Of a stretch of DNA of 34,580 bases, positions 1-34,580 are shown piece by piece. Source of the DNA: a virus (Duplodnaviria; Heunggongvirae; Uroviricota; Caudoviricetes); IMG/VR virus record IMGVR_UViG_2617270944_000003, positions 1-34,580 of that record; one strand, given 5' to 3'. Under the pieces are notes generated by a model, which was not told the origin of the DNA, did not search any database, and saw only the letters and a list, made by a program, of their open reading frames with translations. Made by a program: the position numbers and the translations under genes. Each line of letters begins with the position of its first letter. Within the stretch, counting starts at the first letter, position 1.

Positions 1-47
1 ATGTAGGAATTTCGGACGCGGGTTCAACTCCCGCCAGCTCCACCAAA
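1..47 (+). repeat. ssrA: attL: 47-bp direct repeat matching the 3' terminus of tmRNA (ssrA); likely the 3' end of the intact host tmRNA gene, whose body lies upstream of the window
   Basis: Sequence atgtaggaatttcggacgcgggttcaactcccgccagctccaccaaa is repeated exactly at 34534-34580; ggacgcgggttcaactcccgccagctccacca is recognised from memory as the tmRNA acceptor/T-arm 3' end. Confidence 0.75.
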
Positions 48-21380: not shown

Positions 21381-22121
21381 TTACTCAATAGGTTCAAACT
21401 CATCCTGAGGAATCAGCGTCGATTGACAGGCTTGGCTTAGTACTCCTGATAATTTACATAATAACCGATAGTTATGAGGAGCATCATCGCTAATCTTTTC
21501 GACCGTTAAAGTGATTGATTTTGGATCATCCAATAACATCTTCTTGATATCATTACTTAAATACCTAGGGCAGTAACCAACGATTTCAGCTGGTTTATCT
21601 GCACGAACGACAACAGCATCCCCATCGTATTCATTTTGAAGATCCAAGCAAAGACGCAAAATTTGCCCCGGTTTCAATTCAGATACACGAGCATTAGCTA
21701 AGCTATTTAAGTAACCAAGTCCATGTAAGAAGAAAAAATGCTCAAAGTTACCATCAGAATCAACATCAATTTTTTTGAAAATCTGCAGCTGATCAGTGCT
21801 TCGTAAGCCTCCCGAGCGAGCAAGAATATCGATAGGATTTACCTTATCTTCTTCAAATCCAAGCCATTTAATGAAACTCGGATACTCTGGACGTCTCGGT
21901 GATAAAAGGCGATTTTTAAAAAGAGGAAACAATTCTTCCGAAACATAAGTTTCACGAACATCACTCATGCCGCTAAACTTTGTAAATTTAGTAGATTTAA
22001 GAGCACCTTTGGTATACCTGAAAACATACCCCGATTTGCGCTCTTGCAAGTTACCAACAACATGCCAGTCTCTGGTATCTGGTGCCTGCCATGCGACGTA
22101 AACGGAGTTTGTATTAGTCAT
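21381..22121 (-). CDS. HIRAN-domain protein (246 aa), second gene of a kinase-HIRAN operon; candidate defence/toxin-system component
   Basis: C-terminal signature ILRLCLDLQNEYDGDAVVV...EIVGYCPRYLSNDIKKMLLDD fits the HIRAN consensus (remembered pattern); ATG overlaps the kinase stop (ATGA); AT-rich. Confidence 0.55.
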   Translation of the reverse strand: MTNTNSVYVAWQAPDTRDWHVVGNLQERKSGYVFRYTKGALKSTKFTKFSGMSDVRETYVSEELFPLFKNRLLSPRRPEYPSFIKWLGFEEDKVNPIDILARSGGLRSTDQLQIFKKIDVDSDGNFEHFFFLHGLGYLNSLANARVSELKPGQILRLCLDLQNEYDGDAVVVRADKPAEIVGYCPRYLSNDIKKMLLDDPKSITLTVEKISDDAPHNYRLLCKLSGVLSQACQSTLIPQDEFEPIE

Positions 22122-23032
22122 TCTAGTAACCTTCTGCGATTTTCCATTACCATTAACGTTGCAAATCTACGTGCACTGTCGGATATACACGATGAAGGCA
22201 CTTGGTTAAACACATCTGTAATGGAATCTTCTGTTAAAACGCTCAACTTACCTAACCAATGGTCGCGAGCGGCAACTCTCCCTTCAACTGCATGTTGAAA
22301 TGCTTCAACGGTCAGCAAGGGCTTTTTATCAGTTTTTGCTTTGAATAGCTCAGAGCGAGCTTTTCTTACAAAACATGGGATTTGTCGATTTTTATCTTTA
22401 GTATTAAGCCGTTCGTTACGCTCATCATCTAACATCTCCCTTCCTAAACTAGCGGCATGATCGTATGTTGGACACAAAAACTGCTCACCAGTTTCATTGT
22501 TAAGCATGATCGCCCAATTTTCATGATGGCGATCTTGATTACTCACAAGTGCATCGAGCATCAAATATCCACAAAATACATCTGCTGCATTTAGCCCGGT
22601 TAGATCATATACACTCGGAGGAGGCTTGATAGATTCCCTATCCAAACAACCCAATACCCTTGTGACAGTGTGTTCTCTGACCCTTACCGGCTTTTCCCCG
22701 GCTTGTAAAGGCCCAGGATAATCGAATGTCGAACTGTGAAGCACTTCATTTCCCATTACCATCCGGAAACCAGATGGAATGATATTCTGAGTCACCACAC
22801 CGAATCGACCATTGTATCGCGCCAAATCATAGCTAGCATGTGGAATGTTAAGCAAATGACATAACTCAGCAGCACACTTTTCAGACCAATGCTCGCCAGT
22901 ACCTGGCCTAGAGTACTTAAACAACTGCAAATTTACAGTGTCATCGGAGAAATAGAACCAAAACTTCTCTTTGGTTCCTAACTGTTCAAGATCGTTAGCT
23001 ACGGGGCTAAGCTCTACCAATTGGTATGGCAT
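22118..23032 (-). CDS. HipA-like serine/threonine kinase (304 aa, core kinase domain only); candidate defence/toxin effector
   Basis: Motifs GTKEKF (HipA phosphate-binding loop-like) and SNQDRHHENWA (catalytic loop D-x-H-x-x-N); AGGGA RBS; AT-rich relative to the phage core. Confidence 0.6.
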   Translation of the reverse strand: MPYQLVELSPVANDLEQLGTKEKFWFYFSDDTVNLQLFKYSRPGTGEHWSEKCAAELCHLLNIPHASYDLARYNGRFGVVTQNIIPSGFRMVMGNEVLHSSTFDYPGPLQAGEKPVRVREHTVTRVLGCLDRESIKPPPSVYDLTGLNAADVFCGYLMLDALVSNQDRHHENWAIMLNNETGEQFLCPTYDHAASLGREMLDDERNERLNTKDKNRQIPCFVRKARSELFKAKTDKKPLLTVEAFQHAVEGRVAARDHWLGKLSVLTEDSITDVFNQVPSSCISDSARRFATLMVMENRRRLLE

Positions 23033-23184
23033 CTGACATCCCTGTTTAGCGGATTATGAATAAGTTAGGTTCCATTTTATCCAAACATTGTCAAATACTC
23101 TAAGATTTATTAGATGATAGAGCGATACTGTATGCATGTCCAGCAATCAAATCAATATATAACTCTTATATGACTTAGCGCGCG

Positions 23185-23205
23185 CTCGTATCCCCGCCAC
23201 GCCTG
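23185..23205 (-). other. Candidate cos (cohesive end) site
   Basis: Minus-strand ggcgtggcgggga matches the first 13 nt of the 186-type 19-nt cohesive end as remembered; sits in a 600-bp noncoding gap at the P2 cos position relative to Q. Confidence 0.3.
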
Positions 23206-23640
23206 CCCGCTTTGTGTAGTGGTTTTCATGCAGTTGCATAACATAAGCAAAAGCCCGTCAGAACTGGCAGGCTTCGACATAAACGATCCACTAGCGATCA
23301 TTCATTTTCATGCAGCATAGGTATGCACCAGAGTTACTTTGAGGTGCAATGGATGATACCTACAGATTTGCTACCCAAGGTCATGCTGAAAATCTATCGC
23401 ATCTGTATGATGCCGCGGACATAGCGAAATCTCCCCATGCAGTGACAAACTACTTGAGTAAATACTGTTGTGTTACCACAAGAAGAGATTTCAAAAGGAA
23501 AACAACGCTATGTTATCTAGTACATATAGCTATAAATGTCTTAATTTTAGCCAATACATTGAATTAAATGAAAAAATACTTTAGTTTGTATACTATTTTT
23601 TAGCGTTCAAGATTATGCAATTTTTTGGAGAGAACTATAA

Positions 23641-24609
23641 GTGGGATCTTTCAGTTTACTTGCATCACGACCAATACCAACTGTGCTAGAAACAAGACAG
23701 TTTAACTCAGTTAACGGCAGTGACGCCGAATCTTATGCAATGAGTCAATTCATTCTTGCTTGTAGAGGAGAGGGGCACTGGGGTTCCAGGGAAGACGACA
23801 ATTCAAAAATAGATTTAATATTATCCTTCGAACATCCATGGGCATCAAAAGAAAGAATGCTTATATTGTCGCAAGTTAAATCAGGGGCAACTTATGGTCA
23901 TTTATTAGAGAAAGGTTTTGTATTAAATTCGGCCGCAAAAAAAGCAGCCAAAAGGACAACTCACCATATATGTGTCGTTTGGGTTGACAGAACTAATCGT
24001 AAAGCATTTTGGGCCTATATACATCCAAACACTACCCTTAAAAACCAAACTTATGGAGAATATCACTTAATCACTCCGGCTACACGGTTTGACCTGGCTC
24101 GCTGTATGTCCATGGTACGTGCAGGTGAAACTGGAGCAAAAGGAATCCATGTAAGAAGAAGAAACTCACTACTTAATAATCGGCGAGCGTTTGTTAAAAA
24201 ACGTTATTCTGAACAGAAAGAAATCACATCTCCGGTGCTTGGGAAAATCGAGCTTACACGGCTGGGTTGGAGACATATGTTCAGAAAGAGTCGCAGAGAA
24301 GAAAACAAAGCAACGAGTTTGGACATTATTCCCTACTTGAGAAATTTACTAGTTCGGTTTCCTTCAACTCATGCTATTACTTCTTCTGATGTCCGTGATT
24401 ACGGCTGTTTTACTTACCAAAGAAGAGAGCACTTATTGAAATTTAATAATCTAGAGGTTACTTATGCCAAAGGAGAGGGAAAAAATAAAGTATGTGCTTA
24501 TATTCGTGTTATAGAAGAAATAAGGTATCCAAAAGATTGGACTAACGCGGTAATGCTATCACAGCAGGTTGAAAGACGAGTGGTTTTGAAGTCAGCATAT
24601 TATAAATAA
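23641..24609 (+). CDS. Hypothetical protein (322 aa), possible PD-(D/E)xK nuclease-like (DUF4365-like) N-terminal domain; candidate single-gene defence cargo
   Basis: GTG start after GGAGAG RBS (alternative ATG at 23740); N-terminal IDLILSFEH...LSQVKSG resembles a restriction-endonuclease-like motif; very AT-rich, basic C-terminal half. Confidence 0.45.
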   Translation: MGSFSLLASRPIPTVLETRQFNSVNGSDAESYAMSQFILACRGEGHWGSREDDNSKIDLILSFEHPWASKERMLILSQVKSGATYGHLLEKGFVLNSAAKKAAKRTTHHICVVWVDRTNRKAFWAYIHPNTTLKNQTYGEYHLITPATRFDLARCMSMVRAGETGAKGIHVRRRNSLLNNRRAFVKKRYSEQKEITSPVLGKIELTRLGWRHMFRKSRREENKATSLDIIPYLRNLLVRFPSTHAITSSDVRDYGCFTYQRREHLLKFNNLEVTYAKGEGKNKVCAYIRVIEEIRYPKDWTNAVMLSQQVERRVVLKSAYYK

Positions 24610-25194
24610 CGAGGCCGTTGGGAAGCCAGCACTTGCGCCCATGCTCTGCCAGATTCCGGTTTCGAATCGGTTCTCTGGCAATAATGCGGATAGCGTACTG
24701 GGCATCAGCCTTAGCTTTTGCACTCAACCCAACGACCAAGTGGTGAAGCATACTAGTAAAGAAACTTTAATTCTAGATGTTTTGAAGCAATTCTCACATC
24801 AAGTATTAATTTTTCTAAAGCAATGACCTAATGGTATGTCAGGCTTCAACGAAAATTGGCAACCAATCTAGATAACTGTACCTTTTCAAAAAACTGGTGC
24901 GTATCGTTAGTCTCCTTTCGCCGTTGTTCCAGTCTGGTCGCTTCAATAAAAAGCAAGGCCGCCGTACAGCAAAACTATATAATCATAGCTTAAGCCAAAT
25001 CACTCATCTAAGGTGTGGCTCCATTAGTAGTTTGAGCGCTAACAGCCCCTCTGGCGATAAAACTACTCAATACCTGGCACGAAACAAAATCTGGAAGTTA
25101 CTATTTTTTTGCCCATGACTAACGCCTCGCATGGCTCGTTGATCAACCTTGCTAGCGTCAGAATCAAGTCCTAACGCCAGCAACGTTCCTAAGC

Positions 25195-25383
25195 CTAACC
25201 GGGGAGATCCATTGAACGGTTGTACTCATGAGTACGGATTTTCGCCATTAACTCATCGGTCAGCTCCGAAACCCACTGGATAGCAAGCCGCTTCTCTTCA
25301 TCATCGCACTCACTAGCCGCTACAAGCTTAAGAAAAAAATCAATGCGCTGGAGCTTCAAAGACTCCAAAAAATAGTCCTGCAT
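25195..25383 (-). CDS. Small protein (62 aa) under a LexA box; candidate SOS-inducible antirepressor (Tum-like role)
   Basis: ATG at 25383 preceded by AGGAGG; near-consensus LexA box about 45 bp upstream. Confidence 0.45.
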   Translation of the reverse strand: MQDYFLESLKLQRIDFFLKLVAASECDDEEKRLAIQWVSELTDELMAKIRTHEYNRSMDLPG

Positions 25384-25424
25384 CTTTCCTCCTATGACAC
25401 CACACGCAATACTGTATGTATAAC

Positions 25425-25444
25425 CACTGTTTATATTTACAGTA
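25425..25444 (-). promoter_or_regulatory. LexA (SOS) box CTGT-N8-ACAG
   Basis: cactgtttatatttacagta fits the CTGT-N8-ACAG LexA consensus with AT-rich spacer; a partial second site (tactgtatgtataa) lies next to it. Confidence 0.6.
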
Positions 25445-25537
25445 TATAATAATCTTACTGATGTAAAACGTTTTTTTTACGCTTATCAGCCTGATATGCC
25501 TGGTATTATTAAGAGCACGAATTGTTAACCAGCGTAA

Positions 25538-31532: not shown

Positions 31533-32165
31533 ATGATACAGGTAAAGGTTGGAGAGAATACAGGGGGAAGAGAGGCTATCCATAGACTAATGGCAGCCTA
31601 TGATTTCAAGTCCAGACAGCAACTTTGCGATCACTTAGGCGCATCAAAAAGCACCATGGCAAACAGATACTTAAGAGATAGTTTTCCTGCAGAGTGGGTG
31701 ATTCAGTGCGCCTTGGAAACAGGAGTTTCTTTACTGTGGCTAACCACCGGACAGGGGGAGCCAGGTCCAAACATTGAACCTAAAAAAAATATCAATTCCG
31801 TGAACTCCAGCAAGGTTGTACCTCTTTCTGAACTAGTATCTCCTGAAATTGACAAGGCGACTCTCAACGGTGGTTTATTGGTCGATGCTGGAAAAGCAAT
31901 CATTGATAGCAGCATACTCCCCTCAGACTCAAGCAACCTACTGCTGGTGACTACTTCTGGTGATTCTTATTTAATAGATCGCAACCAAACACCACCAGTA
32001 AATGGTATGTGGTTAGTCGATATCGACGGGATAAAAAGCATCGTTAAATTGACTCGACTCCCGGGAAACAAATTAGTAGTGCATCAGGATGATTCATCGT
32101 TTGAGTGCGGTCTGGATGACATTGAGGTAGTAGGCCGCGCACTGAAAATCATTAAGAGCCTTTGA
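31533..32165 (+). CDS. cI: CI-like immunity repressor (phage 186 CI family)
   Basis: N-terminal HTH region similar to remembered 186 CI (...YDFKSRQQLCDHLGASKSTMANRYLRD...ALETGVSLLWLTTGQGE); directly upstream of int. Confidence 0.75.
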   Translation: MIQVKVGENTGGREAIHRLMAAYDFKSRQQLCDHLGASKSTMANRYLRDSFPAEWVIQCALETGVSLLWLTTGQGEPGPNIEPKKNINSVNSSKVVPLSELVSPEIDKATLNGGLLVDAGKAIIDSSILPSDSSNLLLVTTSGDSYLIDRNQTPPVNGMWLVDIDGIKSIVKLTRLPGNKLVVHQDDSSFECGLDDIEVVGRALKIIKSL

Positions 32166-32166
32166 T

Positions 32167-33186
32167 ATGACCATCAGAAAACAGCCGAACGGAAAATGGT
32201 TGTGTGAGTGCTATCCCAATGGACGCAATGGCAAGCGCGTGCGTAAGCAATTTGCCACGAAAGGCGAAGCCATTGCGTTTGAAAGCTTCACAATGGAAGA
32301 AGTGAATAAAAAACCGTGGTTGGGTGAAAAGGATGATCGGCGACGCCTATCAGAATTAATTGAGCTTTGGTATTCCCTGTATGGTCAGACACTCGCAGAC
32401 CCCAAGCGCCTCATGGCGAAACTTAGAATTATCTGTAATGGTCTAGGCGACCCCATCGCCTCTGAGCTGACAGCAGGTGATTTCACAAAATATCGGGAAG
32501 CCAGATTAAAGGGGGAGGTCCAAAATGAAGACGGTTCGTTCATGTCACCCGTTAAACCTCGCACAGTTAATCTTGAGCAGCGTAACCTGTCATCGGTGTT
32601 CGGTACATTGAAAAAACTAGGGCACTGGTCCGCACCAAACCCGCTGGCAGGGCTTCCAACCTTCAAAATTGCTGAAGGTGAATTGGCTTTTCTTTCCACG
32701 GACGAAATCAAACGCCTGTTGGCTGCATGTGCTGAATCTCAAAGCCCGAGCCTACTAATGATTACCAAAATATGCTTAGCTACCGGCGCACGGTGGAGTG
32801 AAGCCGAAAAACTGCAGGGCCATCAGTTATCCAAATACCGCATCACTTATACCAAGACGAAGGGCAAGAAAAACCGTACCGTGCCGATATCTCAGGAGCT
32901 GTACAACGAACTTCCTAAAAACCGAGGGAAGTTATTCTCGCCATGCAGAAAAGCCTTTGAGCGTGCAGTAAAGCGGGCCGGTATTGAGCTTCCAGAGGGT
33001 CAATGCACCCATGTATTACGTCATACATTTGCCAGCCATTTTATGATGAACGGAGGAAACATACTTGTTCTTAAAGAGATTCTCGGTCATACAGATATAA
33101 AAATGACAATGGTTTATTCTCATTTTTCCCCAGACCATCTTGAAGATGCCGTTACCAAAAACCCTTTACATATGTTAACTATTTGA
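32167..33186 (+). CDS. int: Tyrosine integrase (P2/186 family)
   Basis: 339-aa ORF with C-terminal catalytic region ...HVLRHTFASHFMMNGGNILVLKEILGHTDIKMTMVYSHF (R...HxxR...Y); transcribed toward attR. Confidence 0.9.
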   Translation: MTIRKQPNGKWLCECYPNGRNGKRVRKQFATKGEAIAFESFTMEEVNKKPWLGEKDDRRRLSELIELWYSLYGQTLADPKRLMAKLRIICNGLGDPIASELTAGDFTKYREARLKGEVQNEDGSFMSPVKPRTVNLEQRNLSSVFGTLKKLGHWSAPNPLAGLPTFKIAEGELAFLSTDEIKRLLAACAESQSPSLLMITKICLATGARWSEAEKLQGHQLSKYRITYTKTKGKKNRTVPISQELYNELPKNRGKLFSPCRKAFERAVKRAGIELPEGQCTHVLRHTFASHFMMNGGNILVLKEILGHTDIKMTMVYSHFSPDHLEDAVTKNPLHMLTI

Positions 33187-33196
33187 GCTTATCAAA

Positions 33197-34417
33197 ATGG
33201 ATATTAAAAACAAAGTCAATAAAGAAAAGTTATTTGAGAACCATTTAAACTCATTATTAAAACAAGTCATTTCCGAACCAAAATTAAACCCTCCACTTAT
33301 AGTACATAGAGATATAATAAGTGACTTCACTGAACGTTGCGATAAGTATCTAAAAACAATAATTAAATACAAAAGCAACAATAAAGATGGGATGCCGAAT
33401 TTTGATGAATTAATCAGCAAAGTTAAGAACATTCAAAATGGAATAACATTATCACTTGAAAGTTTTTTATCAGGTGATATCAAGTCAGCATATGACCACT
33501 TTGATAAAACATTCTCTGATAACTCAACAATCCAACACATACATCGCATCACTACTCCACTCAGTAGCATTTGCAATCATAAAAAACCATTATTTCGAGT
33601 TAGAAAAAGTGAAAATCCTCTAACGTCAAGAGATGAAATTTTCCATATTCCATTCTCCAATAGACATTTTGTTAGTGCACAAAGATATTCAGTCGCTGGC
33701 TTACCATGTTTATATCTTGGCACTTCTGTTTATGTTTGTTGGCAGGAGATGGAAAAACCAGATTTTGACAAGCTTTTTATTTCATCATTTACTACCAGTG
33801 AAACTGAATATAAAGTCTTAAACTTTGCATCACAGCTTTTGTTACATCCCTCACCAAATTACGCTGACGAAAATAAACTAGCCGAAACAAATAGAGTAAA
33901 GGCCTCTTATCTCATTTTCTGGCCTTTAATTATTGCATGTAATTATTTAAAAAATCATCGTTCTGCAACATTCATACAAGAGTACATTATCCCTAATTTG
34001 TTGATGCAATGGATTAGTAGAAAAACTTACTCGAAAATTGTCGGTGTAGCTTACTTCTCTACAAAAATGCCTAATTCACGATTAAGTAACCGCTCAATAA
34101 ATGTTGTATTTCCACCCAAAGTTACATATGAACAAACGGTAAAACAAAATTTTTGCCCTAAACTCTCCACATTATTCGACTTTACGCCACCTATTTCGTG
34201 GCAGGTCTTAAAAACATTAGATCATTCATCAATAACAGAAAATTCAATAGAATTGATGATGTCAAAGAGATATCTTCAAAGTCAAGAAAAACTGTCTGGA
34301 ATTAAAAACTTCGAAGAGGACATTGTAAAACTATACCCCTTAACTGATTTTTACAAACTCGAAAGAAGTATTGATATGCTATTTGAATATAAAAAGATAG
34401 ATAACCCCATACTATAA
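33197..34417 (+). CDS. RES-domain protein (406 aa) with extra N- and C-terminal regions; orphan toxin/defence candidate
   Basis: Central segment SAQRYSVAGLPCLYLGTSVYVCWQEM fits the RES-domain signature (R-[WY]-[NS]..G.P.LYL..S......E); extremely AT-rich; no adjacent antitoxin-like ORF. Confidence 0.55.
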   Translation: MDIKNKVNKEKLFENHLNSLLKQVISEPKLNPPLIVHRDIISDFTERCDKYLKTIIKYKSNNKDGMPNFDELISKVKNIQNGITLSLESFLSGDIKSAYDHFDKTFSDNSTIQHIHRITTPLSSICNHKKPLFRVRKSENPLTSRDEIFHIPFSNRHFVSAQRYSVAGLPCLYLGTSVYVCWQEMEKPDFDKLFISSFTTSETEYKVLNFASQLLLHPSPNYADENKLAETNRVKASYLIFWPLIIACNYLKNHRSATFIQEYIIPNLLMQWISRKTYSKIVGVAYFSTKMPNSRLSNRSINVVFPPKVTYEQTVKQNFCPKLSTLFDFTPPISWQVLKTLDHSSITENSIELMMSKRYLQSQEKLSGIKNFEEDIVKLYPLTDFYKLERSIDMLFEYKKIDNPIL

Positions 34418-34533
34418 AACTGGCGACAAATTGGCGGCAGAACTTTAAAATCACATAAAACAGCCAAACACAAGATAAGACTAATTCACTGATTTAAAAC
34501 GTAAATATCTATTTTCACTATAATATAAATGGT

Positions 34534-34580
34534 ATGTAGGAATTTCGGACGCGGGTTCAACTCCCGCCAGCTCCACCAAA
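34534..34580 (+). repeat. attR: second copy of the 47-bp tmRNA 3'-end direct repeat
   Basis: Identical to 1-47; preceded by AT-rich phage DNA, so this is the duplicated partial copy. Confidence 0.75.

Follow-up and report, generated by a model that had tools for sequence, protein, structure and literature searches.

A divergent RES-like gene as candidate stand-alone defense cargo between int and the attachment site of a Fels-2-type prophage

The DNA analyzed here (the window; 34,580 nucleotides (nt), positions 1 to 34,580 of IMG/VR virus record IMGVR_UViG_2617270944_000003) is a complete 34.6-kb tailed-phage prophage, the last gene of which is an open reading frame (ORF) with an ATG start, coding for 406 amino acids (aa) plus a stop codon and positioned between the integrase gene int and the right-hand attachment site (att). 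Its product resembles the RES toxins that act on nicotinamide adenine dinucleotide (NAD+), and we refer to it as the RES-like gene. The prophage is bounded by a perfect 47-bp direct repeat, none of which is expected by chance, matching the 3' end of the transfer-messenger RNA (tmRNA) gene ssrA (Rfam RF00023, 51.9 bits). A first-pass annotation of the letters alone likened the prophage to P2, but its 186-type CI repressor domains and an integrase (Int) ~90% identical to those of Fels-2, RE2010, SopEPhi and Cartapus identify it as Fels-2/186-type instead. The position, strand and length given there for an ORF wedged between int and attR were all reproduced. The stop codon of int ends at 33186, and the 10-nt gap that follows contains no terminator-like or promoter-like site in a terminator/promoter scan. 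As the same annotation had remarked, the gene is strongly AT-rich: its GC content of 0.315 (0.268 at third codon positions) is foreign to the prophage, int having 0.463 and the window as a whole 0.507. Features are listed in Table 1.

Table 1. Positions in the window of the RES-like gene, the parts of its product, the flanking prophage features, and other cargo genes
Feature	Position	Strand	Basis or detail
attL core, ssrA (tmRNA) 3' end	1-47	+	47-bp repeat, RF00023
186-type CI repressor gene cI, opens the same-strand cI-int-ORF string	31533-32165	+	Pfam Phage_CI_repr 5e-31, Phage_CI_C 6e-28
Fels-2-type tyrosine integrase gene int	32167-33186	+	Pfam Int_N, Phage_integrase
int-att slot	33187-34533		Corresponding slots: L003 2856-3449; L004 2787-3455; L166 5523-7073; L165; L167
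RES-like ORF (phrog_7835 family)	33197-34417	+	Homologues and AlphaFold2 model
N-terminal all-helical domain, aa 1-125	33197-33571	+	AlphaFold2 helices 3-26, 40-61, 69-91, 95-106, 109-117
Predicted RES/ADP-ribosyltransferase-like catalytic core, aa 126-312	33572-34132	+
R134-V-R136, first core beta-strand	33596-33604	+	R134 invariant, R136 98% (n=59)
Motif R163 to E184, including Y173	33683-33748	+	R163, Y173 and E184 invariant (n=59)
S288-T289 ... N302-V-V	34058-34102	+	S288 90%, N302 95% conserved (n=59)
C-terminal helical region, aa 313-406	34133-34414	+	AlphaFold2, family alignment
AT-rich spacer between ORF stop and att core, 116 nt, 30% GC	34418-34533	.
attR core, duplicated ssrA (tmRNA) 3' end	34534-34580	+	Perfect repeat of 1-47
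PDC-M03 A gene, 304 aa	22118-23032	-	PADLOC E 2e-122; weak HipA_C kinase-like match
PDC-M03 B gene, 246 aa	21381-22121	-	PADLOC E 3e-93; Pfam HIRAN 1e-13
Uncharacterized cargo ORF of the cos-proximal region, 322 aa	23641-24609	+	No Pfam or PADLOC match

The RES-like ORF is a real gene under purifying selection. The first-pass annotation had allowed that it might prove disrupted in closely related prophages; it is intact in 86 of 87 prophage copies, among which the median pairwise ratio of nonsynonymous to synonymous substitution rates (dN/dS) is 0.072. The lone apparent pseudogene (L138 6001-7176) has a 140-aa ORF despite a full-length tblastn match, and a frameshift or stop codon presumably interrupts it. 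The 406-aa protein is matched over its full length by phrog_7835 (E 1.7e-145), and has 224 close homologues in the Enterobacterales, nearly all annotated as 'hypothetical protein'. An exhaustive profile search recovered 2,684 cluster representatives (50% identity) at E<=1e-3, with 944 of them at E<=1e-30; the representatives are mostly 360-410 aa long with full-length matches, and family members are typically 360-420 aa. The family extends over Proteobacteria, Bacteroidota, Firmicutes, Acidobacteriota, Planctomycetota and Spirochaetota, and outside of the Enterobacterales it is present in at least 291 species-level genomes of many phyla, without a nearby P2-type int. At the DNA level, this allele has no copy in 5,426 complete E. 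coli genomes searched with megablast.

An AlphaFold2 model of the protein is confident (predicted local distance difference test 86.6, predicted template modeling score 0.88) and reveals three parts, an N-terminal all-helical domain, a central core, and a C-terminal helical region. In the model the core has the fold of the RES-type NAD+-degrading toxins, and thereby of the RES/ADP-ribosyltransferase (ART)-fold superfamily. The helical parts on either side have conserved residues of their own, G93, A98 and Y99 (FLSGDIKSAYD motif) in the N-terminal domain and C320, L323, P332, Y380 and F385 in the C-terminal region. The first-pass annotation recognized a RES signature in the central region and noted that the protein is about twice the usual size. 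Both observations hold (406 aa compared to toxins of 140-250 aa), and its interpretation is supported overall, the decisive evidence being the predicted fold and a profile-profile match described below rather than the Pfam hidden Markov model (HMM). Scanning the protein against NCBIfam gave nothing specific and against PADLOC-DB v2.0.0 zero matches; the latter carries no weight, because a validated RES defense protein (P0390, of the aRES type described below) and the phage protein YopC also have zero matches. A BFVD fold search yielded nothing useful. The PDB matches that were obtained are helical bundles aligning to the N-terminal region only, and were judged to be spurious.

Conservation of the putative active site was scored in 59 distant family members with 25-46% identity (Table 1). 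The motif quoted in the first-pass annotation, RYSVAGLPCLYLGTSVYVCWQE, corresponds to residues 163-184, and the letters of the RES name fall on R163, E184 and S288. In the alignments R163, Y173 and E184 correspond to R47, Y58 and E69 of MbcT, and S288 and N302 to S184 and N193 of NatT. Comparison using hhalign places Y173 on Y58 and E184 on E69 of MbcT, and R134/R163/Y173/E184/Y263/S288/N302 on R182/R215/Y225/E236/Y309/S334/N349 of aRES, seven positions that are invariant or nearly so among aRES. The aRES-MbcT register agrees with this (R215/Y225/E236 on R47/Y58/E69), and the residue mapping to MbcT is therefore transitive. R134 lies on the first core strand, and by this position probably corresponds to the NAD+-binding arginine, R27 in MbcT and R23 in NatT. 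Experiments on MbcT found R27, R47 and Y58 to be essential, with a contribution from E69 and no requirement for S126 (PMC6436930); the NatT active site consists of R23, R82, Y93, S184 and N193 (PMC11535050). The conserved R/R/Y/E/S/N set thus matches that of the NAD+ phosphorylases MbcT and NatT, and the catalytic and NAD+-binding residues of the RES/ART-fold superfamily can be accounted for at the level of alignment rather than of three-dimensional structure.

The closest characterized relatives by profile are the aRES, stand-alone RES-domain proteins of E. coli, Klebsiella and Enterobacter reported in a preprint of January 2026 (Osterman et al., bioRxiv 10.64898/2026.01.28.702374). The validated aRES, from E. 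coli UC5, K. pneumoniae and E. chengduensis, protect E. coli against diverse phages by turning NAD+ into nicotinamide plus ADP-ribose-1''-phosphate (ADPR-1''-phosphate) with growth arrest, and active-site mutants lose defense (bioRxiv 10.64898/2026.01.28.702374). The three validated sequences, taken from Table S4 of the preprint, were combined with collected homologues into a 27-sequence aRES profile and compared with a 59-member alignment of the family described here. With hhalign, the family matches the three validated aRES at a probability of 92.1% (E 6e-7) and the 27-sequence profile at 89.9% (E 1.7e-6), and the full-domain comparison of the two cores gives 90.9% (E 1.1e-6). The N-terminal domains compare at 0.5% and the C-terminal region with the aRES C-terminus at 0.2%, with cross-domain controls at <=1.2%; N-terminal homology, which had appeared in the three-sequence comparison, was lost with the 27-sequence profile and domain-sliced controls and is rejected. 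By BLASTP, UC5 aRES aligns over 217 aa (E 0.003), with every motif lined up. The motifs in common are LFRxR, F-x-x-P, R-x-polar, Y, E, (E/D)Y, S-T and N-V-V, with Y263 and F149/P152 corresponding to Y309 and F203/P206 of aRES.

In overall organization the two groups are alike in that both are stand-alone, multi-domain proteins of 300-600 aa with the RES core in the middle, and both are present in Enterobacterales. They differ in that aRES are ~460 aa and have an N-terminal CxxC...CxxC arrangement of four invariant cysteines plus PF18870, whereas these cysteines are absent from the phrog_7835-type family. As a positive control, aRES score 53-55 bits on Pfam RES and 21-41 bits on PF18870, whereas the 406-aa protein matches neither, and none of 84 scanned family members matches PF18870. 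The aRES are located in chromosomal defense islands, and the RES-like gene is prophage cargo beside int. The published definition of aRES calls for hhsearch probabilities >80% to both the RES Pfam and PF18870, a length of 300-600 aa, and no operon partners. Against this the protein has a suitable length (406 aa), no conserved partner gene, and 89.9-90.9% over the RES core, albeit by hhalign as a proxy rather than by hhsearch against Pfam; it has no PF18870. It shares the catalytic core of aRES but not the accessory domains and therefore falls outside of the definition. None of the 120 close homologues listed has a precomputed Pfam annotation, and we infer that they would have been missed by the first filter of the preprint, which requires RES Pfam annotation. 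The preprint Methods give the RES Pfam accession as PF00808, which looks like a typographical error given that aRES match PF08808. The validated aRES are absent from PADLOC-DB v2.0.0, and pipelines using that release will thus miss RES-based systems.

The RES-Xre toxins (MbcT, NatT, P. putida Res, VPA0770 and ParT) are single-domain proteins of 140-250 aa, each with a neighboring Xre-type antitoxin that plugs the active site, whereas the protein described here has two extra domains and its gene has no antitoxin gene beside it. Relative to these toxins there is a ~45-aa insertion in the core (aa 210-255), and a longer R-to-R spacing that includes an FHIPF motif. Neither an adjacent co-oriented Xre or helix-turn-helix (HTH) gene nor the small single-domain toxin of type II RES-Xre systems is therefore found. 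Uncharacterized phage-borne members or relatives of the family include phrog_7835, phrog_12013, phrog_37055 and YopC of SPbeta. YopC is 442 aa and 30% identical over 268 aa (tblastn 2e-32), and its Pfam RES score of 22.4 bits lies just under the threshold of 23.2, whereas the 406-aa protein has no match; a literature search on yopC found no reported function. SPbeta yopC directly follows yopB, a 75-aa HTH_26 gene (L001 2285-3948), an order that resembles Xre-RES pairs and is unlike that of the enterobacterial copies. In L053, a family member from B. paranthracis, the upstream gene is Spo0E-like instead. The 406-aa protein is thus a divergent relative, not a Pfam RES protein by threshold, not a RES-Xre toxin, and not an aRES as defined.

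Relatives of the protein are encoded by 135 viral contigs in IMG/VR, and 80 of these loci were retrieved for analysis of gene context. A Fels-2-type int lies immediately upstream on the same strand in 77 of the 80, with a gap of 2-80 nt, and a CI gene is present in 78. In 48 loci the ssrA att core follows the gene at a distance of 138-182 nt, and 16 more end too early to tell. The RES-like gene is thus recurrent cargo, the last gene before att. No adjacent small HTH/Xre gene is present in the window, where int is upstream and att downstream, nor in 77 of the 80 related viral loci with the same arrangement, in agreement with the first-pass annotation. For the distant family members, neighbors were searched for partner genes by BLAST clustering and Pfam scanning; among the 69 same-strand neighbors within 150 nt no Pfam family is present in more than three, and no Xre/HTH antitoxin recurs. 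These neighbors include type I/III restriction subunits, methylases, GmrSD, Uma2, integrases and a TrwC relaxase. A Bacteroidota sub-clade (7 of 75 loci: L034 (5016-5687), L039, L042, L044, L045, L049 and L051) has an upstream ORF of ~220 aa, lacking a Pfam match, that shares 4-14 nt with the RES-like gene or, in L051, is separated from it by 1 nt. The overlap suggests translational coupling, and this ORF may be a clade-specific partner.

The int-att slot of Fels-2-type prophages at ssrA exists in at least five states among prophages sharing the same cI-int backbone. It is empty in Fels-2 and in ST15-OXA48phi14.1; it contains the RES-like gene in the window, RE2010, SopEPhi, Cartapus and SE479; and it is occupied by unrelated genes of 197 aa in E. 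coli SCU-172, 222 aa in E. coli RM10466 and 516 aa in ST437-OXA245phi4.1. The three alternative genes have no Pfam or PADLOC match, and the idea that they are truncated relatives of the RES-like gene was rejected (BLASTP E 0.18-1.6). The comparison of int-att junctions proposed in the first-pass annotation thus shows recurrent RES-like cargo in a slot that varies among sister prophages. The annotation further stated that int directly abuts att in P2; such an arrangement is seen in Fels-2 (117 bp from int to attP), the comparison being among Fels-2-type prophages and not with P2 itself. Across related prophages (L085-L164) Int is ~90% identical to that of the window, compared to 45-57% for the RES-like gene and 52% to 100% for CI, and the cargo and immunity genes thus diverge or are exchanged much faster than the integrase between them. 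A known anti-phage hotspot of P2 adjoins cos, and a cI-int hotspot was described in Vibrio K139-like phages in the same study, which does not describe the int-att slot (Rousset et al. 2022, PMC9122126). The slot is similar to the P2/P4 hotspots in being a small variable locus with conserved phage genes on both flanks, those hotspots having diverse defense cargo; the published P2 hotspot is cos-proximal, whereas on the prophage map the RES-like gene is found at the other end, in the int-att interval, and thus outside of that location.

Given these observations, we favor, with slightly better than even confidence, the interpretation that the RES-like protein is a stand-alone effector that degrades NAD+ upon phage infection and aborts that infection, most likely in the manner of aRES. 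It would be a three-part effector borne as accessory cargo in the int-att slot of a Fels-2/186-type prophage, its RES-type catalytic core flanked by an N-terminal helical domain and a C-terminal helical region. In coliphage 186, cI and int are transcribed from the lysogenic promoter pL. Low-level production in the lysogen would probably occur by read-through of the cI-int lysogenic transcript, because the intergenic gap is short (10 nt) and has no terminator. The flanking domains would hold the RES core inactive in place of a separate Xre antitoxin, with the N-terminal domain as the proposed sensor or autoinhibitory module. Infection by another phage would then switch the effector on, and the infected cell would be arrested and the infection aborted, which would protect the population of lysogens together with their prophage. 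The first-pass annotation had considered either a fused regulatory domain or a single-gene abortive-infection effector to be plausible, and the reading given here, with the flanking domains as putative regulators of a predicted single-gene effector, is in line with it.

Several observations weigh against this interpretation. The Pfam RES model (PF08808, gathering score 23.2 bits), which the first-pass annotation had offered as a check, has no match to the 406-aa protein even at E<=10, with sub-threshold matches among its close relatives (15 of 25, best E 0.04) and its distant ones (20 of 59, best E 3.3e-5). PDB searches with the protein and with 25-sequence, 59-sequence and core-only alignments recovered no solved RES toxin, and the match of the family to an MbcT-clade profile is weak (hhalign, 10-18%). 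The last of these is not evidence against homology, because bona fide aRES score only 1.7% against the same profile, making it a poor bridge. The residue correspondences are alignment-based, and the evidence on the phrog_7835-type family comes from sequence and structure prediction, whereas aRES are experimentally validated. RES domains can also act as protein ADP-ribosyltransferases, as in ParT, and another chemistry is therefore possible, and a role of the N- and C-terminal domains in sensing or autoinhibition is a conjecture for domains that have no recognizable relatives. Finally, expression in the lysogen may be low. RNA-seq of E. coli LF82 does not place the Cartapus orthologue, which is 45% identical, among the genes at least 5-fold above prophage background, with cI at 5-fold (PMC9928086). 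The gene is thus expressed modestly if at all, as would befit an enzyme that may be toxic.

Alternative explanations can be weighed on much of the same evidence. A toxin-antitoxin (TA) or addiction module stabilizing the prophage, with the antitoxin acting in cis (N- or C-terminal domain) or in trans (e.g. the HTH repressor CI), draws on the RES fold being typical of RES-Xre TA toxins, on SPbeta yopC (30% identical) lying directly after the HTH_26 gene yopB, on the overlapping 220-aa upstream ORF in seven Bacteroidota members, and on the location of the RES-like gene in the same-strand string as cI. We regard it as unlikely, however, since no small HTH/Xre gene is adjacent in the window or in 77 of the 80 related prophage loci, no partner family recurs among the 69 neighbors, and the closest characterized relatives by profile are stand-alone defense proteins rather than TA toxins. 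The slot is moreover empty in Fels-2 and taken up by unrelated genes in sister prophages whose cI-int backbone is the same, and the RES-like gene is therefore dispensable for prophage maintenance. An activity as a RES-fold ADP-ribosyltransferase of a macromolecule, either a protein (as ParT modifies Prs) or a nucleic acid, rather than as a degrader of free NAD+, would still permit a defense role, and it too seems improbable: aRES, which make ADPR-1''-phosphate from NAD+, are the best match by profile, the R/R/Y/E/S/N set is that of the phosphorylases MbcT and NatT, and Y263 and the F149/P152 motif are in common with aRES.

The gene could also be a moron using a RES-like fold outside of defense, in host physiology, persistence, virulence or as a phage life-cycle accessory. 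SopEPhi, a virulence-converting phage, carries a homologue. RES toxins of the NatT type bring about persistence instead of immunity (PMC11535050), and expression of the Cartapus orthologue in lysogeny broth is not elevated (PMC9928086). The family is nevertheless found in many phyla beside restriction-modification and mobile-element genes, and the cargo is strongly diverged beside a conserved int in a variable slot; divergence, variable slot and neighbors of this kind are typical of inter-virus conflict genes, and together with the homology to a validated defense family they make such a role quite unlikely. That the ORF is a decaying or non-functional hitch-hiker with residual RES resemblance is scarcely credible: it is unrecognized by Pfam, has an AT-rich foreign composition, and the allele is in no complete E. 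coli genome at the DNA level, but the dN/dS of 0.072, the 86 intact copies of 87, active-site positions that are invariant across 25-46% identity, 2,684 cluster representatives, and a confident structure prediction all stand against it.

Other variable regions of the prophage are also occupied by cargo. The cos-proximal variable locus of the window (21381-25537), which corresponds to the published P2 hotspot, contains a PADLOC candidate defense pair, PDC-M03, located by gene order between a putative portal gene and a putative replication gene A, as well as the uncharacterized 322-aa ORF (Table 1). The presence of this pair in the same prophage counts in favor of reading the RES-like gene as defense cargo. 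Between attL and ogr (169-652), ORFs of 91 aa and 62 aa take the place of a single 160-aa ORF in Cartapus, annotated as a 'putative exonuclease' and with a weak BRCT match. The split results from an extra A in a poly-A tract at 406-414 (A9, versus A8 in Cartapus) in DNA that is otherwise 97% identical; a frameshift, phase variation of the tract or an error in sequencing may explain it. The Cartapus 160-aa gene is the top-expressed Cartapus moron in LF82, at 15-fold (PMC9928086).

More broadly, we propose, tentatively and as somewhat short of an even chance, that the RES-like ORF represents a large and hitherto unrecognized family, of at least 2,684 clusters at 50% identity, whose members would each act alone as immune effectors targeting NAD+, with N- and C-terminal domains different from those of aRES and a different infection cue, and that the int-att junction of Fels-2-type prophages at ssrA is a further hotspot of anti-phage cargo, apart from the cos-proximal one of P2. 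If so, the RES core would be the sole part in common with aRES, the different accessory domains would probably imply a different phage trigger, and the family would be missed by Pfam, by PADLOC and probably by the published aRES catalogue. It would also be a second example of a toxin type normally controlled by an antitoxin being regulated within a single polypeptide, and would help in comparing sensor modules and in finding out whether phage countermeasures such as Adpp phosphatases and aRad-type inhibitors act on it too. The int-att junction of Fels-2-like prophages is an anchor that can readily be scanned for further cargo, including the 197-, 222- and 516-aa genes. Should the proteins be active, immunity based on NAD+ phosphorolysis would extend well beyond the proteins detected by current RES and aRES models. 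The concept is anticipated by aRES, and the family described here is a credible and widespread candidate for defense that annotation tools have missed.

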